The notes under the pieces were generated by a model. That model searched no databases. It was not told where the DNA came from and worked only from the letters and a program-made list of their open reading frames with translations. Both the position numbers and the translations under genes were made by a program. 31,345 bases of DNA, from sequence record OM475426; one strand, 5' to 3'. Each line of letters opens with the position of its first letter. Position 1 is the first letter of the stretch. Positions 1 to 31,345 of the stretch are shown piece after piece. The stretch is from Escherichia phage D8.

Positions 1-92
1 AGTTTAGATCGTGCTCCGTCAGAATAGGCGCGACACCATGGTGGTCATGCACCTGCATTAAAACCGACCCATGAAGCGGGCGGGCGAGGCGG
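1..92. repeat. Terminal direct repeat: bases 1-92 are identical to 31129-31220 (circular/concatemer wrap of the phage genome)
   Basis: Direct comparison of the window start with 31129-31220; match breaks at base 93 vs 31221. Implies unit genome length 31,128 bp. Confidence 0.9.
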
Positions 93-102
93 GGGAAAGC
101 AC
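83..102. other. cos: Candidate cos (cohesive end / terminase cleavage) site, P2-type
   Basis: Sequence ggcgaggcgggggaaagcac closely resembles the P2 19-nt cohesive end as I recall it (GGCGAGGCGGGGAAAGCAC, from memory), and lies just outside the Q gene 3' end as in P2. Confidence 0.55.
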
Positions 103-18585: not shown

Positions 18586-21025
18586 CAATGTAAAATTACA
18601 GGTATTGCTCAGGGCTGTTGACCAGGCATCCCGCCCGTTTAAATCCATCCGCACAGCGAGCAAGTCGCTGTCGGGGGATATCCGGGAAACACAAAAATCA
18701 CTGCGCGAGCTGAACGGTCACGCATCCCGTATTGAGGGATTTCGCAAGACCAGCGCACAGCTCGCCGTGACTGGTCATGCACTTGAAAAGGCACGGCAGG
18801 AGGCCGAAGCCCTTGCCACACAGTTTAAAAACACTGAACGTCCGACCCGTGCTCAGGCGAAAGTGCTGGAATCCGCAAAGCGTGCGGCGGAGGACTTACA
18901 GGCAAAATATAACCGCCTGACGGATTCCGTTAAACGCCAGCAGCGGGAACTGGCCGCTGTGGGAATTAATACCCGCAATCTTGCACATGATGAGCAGGGG
19001 CTGAAAAACCGTATCAGTGAAACCACCGCACAGCTTAACCGGCAGCGCGACGCGCTGGCGCGTGTCAGTGCGCAACAGGCAAAACTTAACGCAGTAAAAC
19101 AGCGTTATCAGGCAGGAAAGGAGCTGGCCGGAAATATGGCCTCAGTGGGCGCTGCCGGTGTGGGGATTGCTGCTGCGGGAACGATGGCCGGAGTTAAGTT
19201 GCTGATGCCCGGTTATGAGTTTGCGCAGAAAAACTCAGAATTACAGGCTGTGCTCGGTGTGGCAAAAGACTCCGCCGAAATGACCGCACTACGCAAACAG
19301 GCGCGCCAGCTCGGCGACAATACCGCCGCCTCGGCGGATGATGCGGCCGGTGCACAGATAATCATCGCGAAAGCGGGTGGGGATGTTGATGCCATTCAGG
19401 CGGCAACGCCGGTCACGCTGAATATGGCGCTGGCGAACCGTCGCACAATGGAAGAAAACGCCGCCCTGCTGATGGGGATGAAATCCGCCTTTCAGCTTTC
19501 AAACGATAAGGTCGCTCATATCGGGGATGTTCTCTCCATGACGATGAACAAAACCGCCGCTGATTTTGACGGCATGAGCGATGCGCTGACCTATGCCGCA
19601 CCAGTGGCAAAAAATGCCGGTGTCAGCATTGAAGAAACCGCCGCAATGGTCGGGGCGCTGCATGATGCAAAAATTACCGGTTCAATGGCGGGGACGGGAA
19701 GCCGTGCCGTGTTAAGTCGCCTGCAGGCACCGACGGGAAAAGCATGGGATGCACTCAAAGAGCTTGGCGTGAAAACCTCAGACAGTAAGGGGAATACCCG
19801 ACCAGTATTTACCATTCTGAAAGAAATGCAGGCCAGTTTTGAGAAAAACCGGCTCGGTACTGCCCAGCAGGCTGAATACATGAAAACTATTTTCGGGGAG
19901 GAGGCCAGCTCAGCCGCCGCCGTGCTGATGACTGCCGCCTCAACCGGAAAGCTGGACAAACTGACCGCTGCGTTTAAAGCCTCAGACGGGAAGACCGCCG
20001 AGCTGGTAAATATCATGCAGGACAACCTCGGCGGTGACTTTAAGGAGTTTCAGTCCGCTTATGAGGCGGTGGGGACTGACCTGTTTGACCAGCAGGAAGG
20101 CGCACTGCGTAAGCTCACGCAGACGGCCACAAAGTATGTGTTAAAACTCGACGGCTGGATCCAGAAAAACAAATCACTGGCGTCAACCATTGGCCTCATT
20201 GCCGGTGGCGCGCTGGCGCTTACTGGCATCATCGGTGCCATTGGTCTTGTAGCCTGGCCGGTTATCACCGGCATCAATGCCATCATCGCGGCAGCAGGCG
20301 CAATGGGGGCAATCTTCACGACGGTTGGTAGTGCCGTTATGACGGCCATCGGGGCGATTAGCTGGCCGGTTGTGGCCGTGGTGGCCGCCATTGTCGCCGG
20401 GGCGTTGCTTATCCGTAAATACTGGGAGCCTGTCAGCGCATTCTTTGGCGGTGTGGTGAAAGGGCTGAAAGCGGCATTTGCGCCGGTGGGGGAGCTGTTC
20501 ACGCCACTGAAACCGGTGTTTGACTGGCTGGGCGAAAAGTTACAGGCCGCGTGGCAGTGGTTTAAAAACCTGATTGCCCCCGTCAAAGCCACCCAGGACA
20601 CCCTGAACCGTTGTCGTGACACGGGTGTCATGTTCGGGCAGGCACTGGCTGACGCGCTGATGCTGCCGCTTAATGCGTTCAACAAACTGCGCGGCGGTAT
20701 TGACTGGGTACTGGAAAAACTTGGCGTCATCAACAAAGAGTCAGGCACGCTTGACCAGACCGCCGCCAGAACTCATGCCGCCACGTATGGCACCGGTGGT
20801 TATATTCCGGCGGCCAGCTCTTATGCAGGTTATCAGGCTTATCAGCCGGTCACGGCACCGGCTGGCCGCTCTTATGTGGACCAGAGTAAAAACGAATATC
20901 ACATCAACCTGACGGGCGGTACTGCGCCGGGGACACAGCTTGACCGCCAGTTACAGGATGCACTCGAAAAATACGAGCGGGATAAACGTGCGCGCGCCCG
21001 TGCCAGCATGATGCATGACGGTTAA
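18578..21025 (+). CDS. T: Tail tape measure protein (P2 gpT-like), 815 aa
   Basis: 815 aa as P2 gpT; Ala/Gly-rich with a hydrophobic central region; overlaps the E' end. Confidence 0.9.
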   Translation: MSNNVKLQVLLRAVDQASRPFKSIRTASKSLSGDIRETQKSLRELNGHASRIEGFRKTSAQLAVTGHALEKARQEAEALATQFKNTERPTRAQAKVLESAKRAAEDLQAKYNRLTDSVKRQQRELAAVGINTRNLAHDEQGLKNRISETTAQLNRQRDALARVSAQQAKLNAVKQRYQAGKELAGNMASVGAAGVGIAAAGTMAGVKLLMPGYEFAQKNSELQAVLGVAKDSAEMTALRKQARQLGDNTAASADDAAGAQIIIAKAGGDVDAIQAATPVTLNMALANRRTMEENAALLMGMKSAFQLSNDKVAHIGDVLSMTMNKTAADFDGMSDALTYAAPVAKNAGVSIEETAAMVGALHDAKITGSMAGTGSRAVLSRLQAPTGKAWDALKELGVKTSDSKGNTRPVFTILKEMQASFEKNRLGTAQQAEYMKTIFGEEASSAAAVLMTAASTGKLDKLTAAFKASDGKTAELVNIMQDNLGGDFKEFQSAYEAVGTDLFDQQEGALRKLTQTATKYVLKLDGWIQKNKSLASTIGLIAGGALALTGIIGAIGLVAWPVITGINAIIAAAGAMGAIFTTVGSAVMTAIGAISWPVVAVVAAIVAGALLIRKYWEPVSAFFGGVVKGLKAAFAPVGELFTPLKPVFDWLGEKLQAAWQWFKNLIAPVKATQDTLNRCRDTGVMFGQALADALMLPLNAFNKLRGGIDWVLEKLGVINKESGTLDQTAARTHAATYGTGGYIPAASSYAGYQAYQPVTAPAGRSYVDQSKNEYHINLTGGTAPGTQLDRQLQDALEKYERDKRARARASMMHDG

Positions 21026-29084: not shown

Positions 29085-29199
29085 ATGGTGTCGGAACATA
29101 ATATTTTCAGGTGTTCAAAGAGTTTGTTCTGATGTTCTTGCTATTTTTGTTTCTTTTGATGAAAATGGCGTCTTTAAAATTGGTTAAAAGGTGTGTTGT

Positions 29200-29688
29200 A
29201 TGGATGGTTTATGGGAAAAAATATCGTCTTATAATATATTTAACAATCTCTTTCCCGGTGCTTTGTTTATTTATTTGTTTGAGCGGGCAACCAATGTGAT
29301 ATTATCCACAGATGATGTTGTTAAGAATGTGGTACTTTACTATTTTACGGGGATAATTATCGGAAGGATTGGGTCTATTGTTTTTGAGCCTGTGTTGAAA
29401 TTTTTGGGGCTGGTAAAATTTGTTCCATATGAGGAATATATCTCAGCATGTAGAAAGGATAATAAAATAGAGCTTCTTCAAGAAACTGCAAATATGTATA
29501 GGACGTTATTCTCTATGTCCTTGGTTTTTTTGTTTTCTTTGTTTTTTGTTTCGTTTGTAGTTGGTGGTGATTACATGGCGTCGAAATGGATTTCATTGTT
29601 TTTGATTTTTGTTTTTATTGTGTCGTACGTTAAGCAAATTAAGTTTATTACATTAAGAGTGAGTAAGGCTAATAATAAGCTGCCCTAA
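29200..29688 (+). CDS. Cargo ORF: small polytopic membrane protein (about 4 TM helices), about 162 aa, unknown function
   Basis: AT-rich; RBS aaggtg before ATG at 29200; hydrophobic segments FPGALFIYLF, VVLYYFTGIIIGRIGSIVF, LFSMSLVFLFSLFFVSFVVGG, WISLFLIFVFIVSYV. Confidence 0.55.
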   Translation: MDGLWEKISSYNIFNNLFPGALFIYLFERATNVILSTDDVVKNVVLYYFTGIIIGRIGSIVFEPVLKFLGLVKFVPYEEYISACRKDNKIELLQETANMYRTLFSMSLVFLFSLFFVSFVVGGDYMASKWISLFLIFVFIVSYVKQIKFITLRVSKANNKLP

Positions 29689-29702: not shown

Positions 29703-30788
29703 TTATTCTTCAGTCTTATAACTCCTTGCGTATGAGCGTGGGGTGACTGCAGTCCAGCCATCTCTGGCGGGGGCATTACTAGAATGGCGTTTATTGGTGC
29801 CTTCTGTGGCGACTACTTTGGCTCCACGCCTTGTAAAAGCATTAATGACCGCTTGATGAGGGTGTTTATCGGAATCCGGTGCGCATGATATAAATGCACA
29901 AACACCACTTCTTCCTCCTTCGCTTACAATATTTCCAACGAGCTTATTTAGCACCGCTGGACCGATGTTTCTCCTGCTTCCATGGTGGGGCACTTGAATA
30001 AATGATAATGAGTTATTATTTATATGATCAGCAGCCATATCTAATGCAGTTATTCCTGCATCACCTGTAAATACTAGTGTTTTATTGTCAATTTCAATTT
30101 TTAATATAACGCTTGAATTGTTTTGTGCAGTAGTTGTGTCCTTGTCATCAATTCCCTCATCAGAGAACCAATCAGCAATATACTCGACTTGTTCTTTGGC
30201 TTTCTCAAAAAAGTAGTTATATGCATCTGTACCACTGGTTGCAGTTGTTTCTGCTTTTTCAGGCATTCTTGCAAAATCGGGGATTAATGTTTCATAGTAT
30301 GCTTGTGTTGGTCCAATAACAACCAGTTTAGAATTGTCCCAAGTCCTGCCTTGAAAAGGCTCCTTAATTTCTATTCCTTTTTTTTTCGCTGATTTGACGG
30401 CATCATAGGCTTTTTGTAGATTATCTTGTATACGTCTGGCAATACTTGCATCTGTTATCCTTCCATCAGCAAATTCCTGCGCGAGATTTTCATTATGCTC
30501 CCAAGGCTGGTGAATCCAGAACTCTTTGACTTCCGCATTCTCAATCACATGCTCAAGGCCGCCAGCATGGTCGCTATCTGGATGCGTGGATATGAGTAAG
30601 TCAATAGTATTTGTATGATAGTATTTCTGTAAATGTTCAATTATTTGTGGACCAGTGCTTGCGTACCCCGCATCAATTACGACAACTTTTTGCTCTGCTC
30701 TTGTTCCGTGGAGGTTGCCCCATCTTATGCAGATAGCATCTCCACTTTTTTTTTCTCCAACTGCTAAGAAATCAACTTCGTAACCCAT
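29703..30788 (-). CDS. Cargo ORF: metallo-beta-lactamase-fold hydrolase (possible nuclease), 361 aa
   Basis: All five MBL-fold motifs in order: VVVIDAG (Asp), STHPDSDHAGG (HxDxDH variant of HxHxDH), FWIHQ (His), VFTGDAG (Asp), VPHHGS (His); AT-rich; RBS-like aaggg before ATG; located where P2 carries tin/old. Confidence 0.75.
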   Translation of the reverse strand: MGYEVDFLAVGEKKSGDAICIRWGNLHGTRAEQKVVVIDAGYASTGPQIIEHLQKYYHTNTIDLLISTHPDSDHAGGLEHVIENAEVKEFWIHQPWEHNENLAQEFADGRITDASIARRIQDNLQKAYDAVKSAKKKGIEIKEPFQGRTWDNSKLVVIGPTQAYYETLIPDFARMPEKAETTATSGTDAYNYFFEKAKEQVEYIADWFSDEGIDDKDTTTAQNNSSVILKIEIDNKTLVFTGDAGITALDMAADHINNNSLSFIQVPHHGSRRNIGPAVLNKLVGNIVSEGGRSGVCAFISCAPDSDKHPHQAVINAFTRRGAKVVATEGTNKRHSSNAPARDGWTAVTPRSYARSYKTEE

Positions 30789-31128
30789 TCTTGTGCCCTT
30801 CTGTAGTTTTCAACTTTATGTAAGTGTTGTACGCCAAAGTAGTGCAGGACTTGATTAGGCAATCAAAGACCTTTAAAACAATATCAGGATGCATAAATAT
30901 TCGTGTCTAGATCAATAGATTAGATCGAGTTTTTGATAATCAATTTGCGCCTGCTTCTTGATAACCGTTGTTAGTGTAAATTTTGCGCAATGTAATTGGC
31001 AAATCACTGCGATATGAGTTGCGTGCCAGCCAGCTTTAATATGCAGACTTTGCTATATCTTTCTACACGATTTTTATTTTCAGATGTGCAAGCATTAGGC
31101 GCATTGTTTTGCATGCGTTGGAGCTGCT

Positions 31129-31220
31129 AGTTTAGATCGTGCTCCGTCAGAATAGGCGCGACACCATGGTGGTCATGCACCTGCATTAAAACCGACCCAT
31201 GAAGCGGGCGGGCGAGGCGG
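31129..31220. repeat. Second copy of the 92-bp terminal direct repeat (identical to window bases 1-92), includes the first half of the cos-like sequence
   Basis: Exact match read from sequence; divergence begins at 31221. Confidence 0.9.
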
Positions 31221-31345
31221 CATTAGATATGGCTGCTGATCATATAAATAATAACTCATTATCATTTATTCAAGTGCCCCACCATGGAAGCAGGAGAAAC
31301 ATCGGTCCAGCGGTGCTAAATAAGCTCGTTGGAAATATTGTAAGC
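31221..31345. repeat. 125-bp inverted duplication: reverse complement of 29922-30046 (internal to the MBL-fold gene)
   Basis: Reverse complement of gcttacaatatttccaacgagc...cagccatatctaatg (29922-30046) equals 31221-31345 exactly as far as I can read. Confidence 0.85.

Follow-up and report, generated by a model that had tools for sequence, protein, structure and literature searches.

Altogether our analysis indicates that the inverted tail at the right-hand end of the window (the whole stretch of 31,345 nt analysed here) is very probably a technical chimera that arose at the cohesive end of a phage genome and is not a biological feature. The right half of a second cos site is replaced in this record by a fragment of a gene that lies a little over 1 kb away, read from the opposite strand. 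The features on which the argument rests are the following.

1..92, + strand: first copy of the direct repeat, consisting of the 82 nt that precede cos on the circular map and the first 10 nt of cos; bases 1-82 are the last 82 nt of the Peduovirus P24E6b record
83..102, + strand: the complete cos, GGCGAGGCGGGGGAAAGCAC, which is the canonical 19-nt P2 cos with one additional G in the G-run
29191..29688, + strand: open reading frame of 165 aa (162 aa as called in genomes), partner of the gene that follows; PADLOC candidate PDC-M48A (E 6.8e-49)
29703..30788, - strand: metallo-beta-lactamase-fold (MBL-fold) gene of 361 aa; Pfam Lactamase_B (E 2.4e-13) and PADLOC candidate PDC-M48B (E 6.4e-99)
29922..30047, - strand: genuine source of the tail, within the MBL-fold gene; single copy and in its normal context in the related genomes fetched
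31129..31220, + strand: second copy of the direct repeat, reached after the assembly has completed one turn of the genome
31211..31220, + strand: partial second cos, GGCGAGGCGG only, with the junction after cos base 9 or 10
31221..31345, + strand: the tail, very probably chimeric, an exact reverse complement of 29922-30046

The original prediction described a direct repeat of bases 1-92 at 31129-31220 that stops 10 nt into a cos-like sequence and is followed by 125 bp copied in inverse orientation from a segment about 1.2 kb upstream, inside an MBL-fold gene, and all of this holds. The two copies of the repeat are identical at 92/92 positions and the identity stops exactly at 31220; the cos-like sequence is a P2-type cos; and the 125 nt of the tail match their source without a mismatch, in the gene at 29703-30788 (-). 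The G at 31220 is compatible with both the direct and the inverted match, which amounts to 1 nt of microhomology at the junction, and once this shared base is counted the inverted match is 126 nt long (29922-30047 against 31220-31345). Across the break the sequence reads GGCGAGGCG(G) and then CATTAG. A chance match can be excluded because the next-best inverted repeat within the window is only 36 nt long at 75% identity. The two inverted arms are separated by a spacer of 1,172 nt, with the donor lying ~1.17 kb upstream of the junction. The window contradicts itself here, since after the same 92 nt the first copy goes on with GGGAAAGCAC and the second with CATTAGAT. From there the tail runs for 125 nt to the final base of the window, with no independent continuation. 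An open reading frame of 30 aa (31173-31265, -) spans the chimeric junction as a product of the join, and this junction-crossing frame has no entry in the gene collection.

P2 gene order and near-identity to classified Peduovirus genomes place the window in that genus, as a cos-type, P2-like phage of E. coli. Escherichia phage 12W (OM475434.1, 38-31257) is 100% identical to it over window 1-31220 (31,220 nt), and Peduovirus P24E6b (LR595885.1 / NC_049389.1; 31,128 bp), whose linear record starts at window base 83, is 99.987% identical with four mismatches, all of them in cos. The identical records carry the full P2 set (Q, P, O, N, M, L, the tail genes, ogr, int, C, cox, B and A), and the annotation counts 43 P2-type genes. 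They are arranged in the P2 order: Q and P come first, A is reached at the far end, and a two-gene cargo separates A from cos. The P2 reference NC_001895 annotates cosL as bases 1-19, GGCGAGGCGGGGAAAGCAC. Window 83-102 matches this P2 cos with one G extra, and its neighbours are the portal gene Q (272-1306, -) on one side and the gpA cargo region on the other; a normal crossing of the site reads GGCGAGGCGG followed directly by GGAAAGCAC. Because the window is that of a cos phage and the repeat is made of 82 nt from the left of cos and 10 nt of cos itself, the 92-nt repeat is the wrap-around of a cohesive-end genome during assembly and not packaged terminal redundancy.

The extra base in cos bears on the length of the genome. 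The G-run of the window cos (91-95) has five G's, giving a site of 20 nt, whereas 15/15 prophage copies have four and a site of 19 nt. The four-G form is also that of the P2 reference, of 11W and of the right-hand copy of cos in 12W, and the five-G form is shared only with the left-hand copy in 12W. A search of IMG/VR for the five-G form gave 0 matches, so the window cos is unlike the prophage copies. The additional G is probably an error in the reads that span cos, in which case the true unit would probably be 31,127 bp and not 31,128 bp. The original prediction had proposed a circular or concatemeric genome of 31,128 bp. Its closed form stands, in that the spacing of the repeat equals the length of P24E6b (31,128 bp) and the phage is of the cos type, and its figure is probably one base too high.

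We searched for the fold-back in other records with a query of 246 nt across the junction and a threshold of at least 80% coverage of the query. Of the 50,697 phage records, the 72,556 plasmids and the 5,426 complete E. coli genomes, none reached this coverage, and the two halves of the query always match separate places. The junction is likewise absent from the records of 12W, P24E6b and 11W. The complete E. coli genomes are the well-powered comparison: 32 of them have the normal path of 246 nt over cos in one piece, and the fold-back is found in 0. The canonical 19-nt cos is read straight through in all 15 of the prophage copies fetched, none of which has the junction, and the prophage of E. 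coli 118UI aligns to the window over 2,928 nt that take in the MBL gene, cos and gene Q without a mismatch, the only gap being one base long and due to the extra G. Exact junction patterns had 0 matches in IMG/VR and in the JGI metagenomes, and 0 matches in the GTDB species genomes. As a control, the wild-type acceptor pattern was found in four IMG/VR contigs, in two JGI metagenome contigs and in no GTDB representative, so that the GTDB result has no value as a negative and that from the metagenomes is a weak one.

Virion-derived assemblies of P2-like phages break repeatedly in the middle of the 19-nt cos. P22H4 (LR595869.1) opens with 30 nt (bases 1-30) that match the end of the Nextera read-2 adapter exactly, and these run directly into GGGAAAGCAC, so that the adapter is joined to G10 of cos. 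The cos of P24E6b reads GGCGAGGCG-GAGACAG-GCAC, with GAGACAG at 10-16 instead of GGGAAA. The motif GAGACAG is the end of the Tn5 mosaic end and resembles an adapter remnant; for both the Nextera and the Tn5 identities the comparison is with the Illumina reagent sequences. In P24B2 (LR595873.1, 1-17) two G's of the cos G-run (G11-G12) are missing. P24A7b, 11W and P2 have the canonical cos. The nucleotide at which the window junction falls is also the one at which the adapter is joined in P22H4, and because the same break is joined there to a sequencing adapter, the break in the window is best understood as technical. The window shares with P22H4 and P24B2 a break in the G-run in the middle of cos, but differs from them in what follows from it: adapter or missing bases there, another part of the phage genome without any adapter remnant here. 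P22H4 belongs to the same Danish series as P24E6b.

The two closest relatives make the comparison sharper. Both 12W and P24E6b have the same genome as the window, P2-like and with 19-nt cohesive ends. The record of P24E6b is cut at cos and is without the 125-nt inverted tail. That of 12W overruns cos as the window does, but its N-riddled tail has a different origin and it too lacks the inverted copy. The 12W record starts 119 nt to the left of cos, crosses cos again at its other end and, after GGCGAGGCGGGGAAAGC, turns mostly to N. This tail (OM475434.1 31265-31347) comprises 83 positions, mostly N, from cos +18 onwards, past cos base 17. Its 24 called bases have their best match at window 18904 (+), at 21/24 positions (~1e-5 expected by chance), and the tail also contains five bases (TAGTC) of the true continuation. 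Because its called bases match the region at 18904 and include TAGTC, the 12W tail looks like a mixture of conflicting continuations of which at least one would be chimeric. A strict consensus of just two continuations, from 18904 and 30638, gave only a partial fit. A partial CDS is annotated over the N-rich tail (31164-31347, -).

The original prediction regarded the fold-back as most simply an artefact of assembly or of a chimeric read. That reading is supported by the uniqueness of the junction to the window, the normal structure of its relatives and the damaged cos in other virion-derived records. Two non-adjacent loci are joined without a shared repeat, and the junction is missing from independent assemblies, as is characteristic of a chimera. 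One component of the prediction has to be narrowed, in that an artefact is upheld but a pure mis-assembly of the graph is not. Between the donor context, which lies to the left of 31220, and the acceptor context, which is what normally precedes the tail, the longest shared word is 7 nt, and the same is true of the two continuations. A mis-join in the graph through a shared repeat is thus ruled out, whether the assembler was of the de Bruijn or of the overlap type, since at most 7 nt are common to donor and acceptor. The join therefore goes back to one or more chimeric molecules or reads, or else to manual editing. Adapter sequences of the Nextera, TruSeq, Ion and 454 types were not found in the window at up to two mismatches. 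A single de Bruijn k (for example k=127) does not fit the lengths of 92 nt and 126 nt, so that these lengths point to no particular assembler.

We picture the following course of events. The virion DNA is linear and ends at cos, and rare reads probably extended the contig slightly past each of its physical ends. On the left, a genuine cos-joined molecule would add 82 nt and so give rise to the direct repeat of 92 nt. The extension on the right would come from a chimeric molecule or read whose top strand is interrupted after 9-10 nt of cos and resumes 1.17 kb upstream on the other strand, in the MBL-fold gene, yielding the 125-nt inverted tail. The end of the tail would simply be where the read or the graph edge ended. 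We infer that the join was made in vitro, and several steps of a sequencing workflow could have made it. In library PCR or strand-displacement amplification the cause would be a template switch or a mispriming event; the other candidates are blunt-end ligation and a tagmentation-related break halfway along a nicked, annealed cos.

Among these candidates, strand-displacement amplification has a published signature. The chimeras that it forms are inverted in 85% of cases and mostly join points less than 10 kb apart (Lasken and Stockwell 2007, PMC1855051), and the join in the window, inverted and with a gap of 1,172 nt, is of the class predominant in that study. In 93.5% of the published inverted chimeras spanning less than 10 kb the microhomology was at least 2 bp (PMC1855051), whereas the window join has 1 nt and is in this respect atypical of amplification chimeras. 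Blunt-end ligation or PCR mispriming could equally well have produced it. The position of the break also counts against a simple account: it lies at cos +9/+10 and not at the filled-in end (+19) that a simple ligation of an end to a fragment would be expected to produce. Tn5 cuts the two strands of its target 9 bp apart. The nicks in an annealed cos would be 19 nt apart, and a Tn5 insertion that used either nick would land at +9 to +11, within the G-run. This account of the junction position is a testable idea, with a geometry that is off by one for P22H4.

A rare rearrangement in vivo, in which a subpopulation of phage genomes carries the fold-back as an inverted duplication and the assembler has picked it up, seems to us very unlikely. 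It would require the 3' end at a terminase-nicked cos, or a rolling-circle fork, to switch to the opposite strand 1.2 kb upstream, and several observations agree with such a route: cos is nicked in vivo by terminase and the junction lies there, the joined points are near to each other and in inverse orientation, which intramolecular strand switching would be expected to give, and the sequence itself forbids nothing. But the path is normal in 32 complete genomes and folded back in none, identical phage records lack the structure, and even the first copy of the repeat in the same contig continues normally. Moreover, the tail stops after 125 nt without continuing independently, a palindromic continuation could not close or be packaged from cos to cos, and the joining of the very same nucleotide to a sequencing adapter in P22H4 argues for a technical break. 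We give slightly less credence still to the specific proposal that the fold-back formed in infected cells when a 3' end inside cos, left by terminase or rolling-circle replication, invaded the opposite strand in the MBL gene; were it true, there would be a recurrent class of defective genomes with inverted duplications. That the junction was made after assembly, by hand or by software, through editing or concatenation of the record or as a deliberate test junction, is more improbable again. The window itself is in none of the collections searched while identical genomes are present in them, the 30-aa frame across the junction is without a record and the copy in the tail is exact and free of errors, all of which would suit a constructed sequence. 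Against this, the same cos nucleotide is damaged in independent virion-derived records, a place where an arbitrary edit would be unlikely to fall, and 12W has a similar shape, starting ~120 nt to the left of cos and carrying ~85 nt of non-genomic tail beyond it, so that such a shape is typical of genuine assemblies of this phage.

The perfect 126-nt inverted repeat, one arm of which lies inside a defence-candidate gene, also invites a functional interpretation, namely that it is genuine and flanks an invertible segment of 1.17 kb (30048-31219) that would act as a switch for the MBL-fold gene. Inversion switches occur in other phages. We nevertheless consider this extremely unlikely here: the identical genome is annotated with no invertase or extra recombinase, only with a P2-type integrase; the second arm takes the place of the right half of cos, a site that the genome has intact, and beyond cos the genome runs on normally in the first copy and in all relatives; and neither the second arm nor the inverted orientation is present in any relative. 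Known structural classes fare no better. A site-specific invertible segment of the Gin/Cin/Hin or shufflon type is set aside by the lack of an annotated invertase and by the absence of the second arm from the relatives. Terminal inverted repeats like those of protein-primed phages and transposons do not apply, one arm being terminal (31220-31345) and the other internal (29922-30047) and not at the left end. A hairpin-telomere prophage of the N15 type is rejected on the spacer of 1,172 nt between the arms and on the lack of a protelomerase among the 43 annotated genes. Direct terminal repeats, which serve as a signal of completeness for viral contigs, come closest, for the window has an exact 92-nt repeat one genome length apart. 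Here, however, the right-hand copy is not terminal, as 125 bases lie beyond it, and the repeat is the wrap-around of a cos phage; the direct terminal repeat of a complete contig is thus also rejected, its spacing of 31,128 notwithstanding, with the right copy ending 125 nt before the contig does.

The reading of the tail as a technical chimera has consequences for the record that are mainly a matter of data hygiene. We recommend trimming 217 bases from the end of the window, 92 of them redundant and 125 chimeric. Left in place, they simulate an inverted repeat of 126 nt and a second, partial copy of the MBL-fold gene, neither of which is real, and the simple terminal-repeat test for completeness no longer works. 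More generally, the cos of virion-derived P2-like records should be compared with prophage copies, as several of those deposited carry adapter or damaged bases.

The gene from which the tail was copied is part of the cargo next to cos. Together with its partner, the 165-aa protein, for which no Pfam match was found, it matches both components of the candidate defence system PDC-M48 of PADLOC. The two genes occur together in 10/10 chromosomal loci, and the exact MBL-fold protein is very widespread, with 1,414 blocks in the assembly collection that contain it. P2-like phages have a hotspot for anti-phage systems beside cos, where P2 carries old and tin (PMC9122126), and the candidate PDC-M48 pair, located between gpA and cos, sits in that hotspot. 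The pair is accordingly a known candidate system in a known location, with no visible link to the artefact, and is not part of an inversion system. The MBL-fold gene bears a variety of names, being a 'tail protein' in the RefSeq record NC_049389.1 (29621-30706), a 'ComEC/Rec2 family competence protein' in RefSeq E. coli (NZ_CP032515.1, 2260-3345) and a 'hypothetical protein' in GenBank; the first of these labels looks like a mis-annotation.
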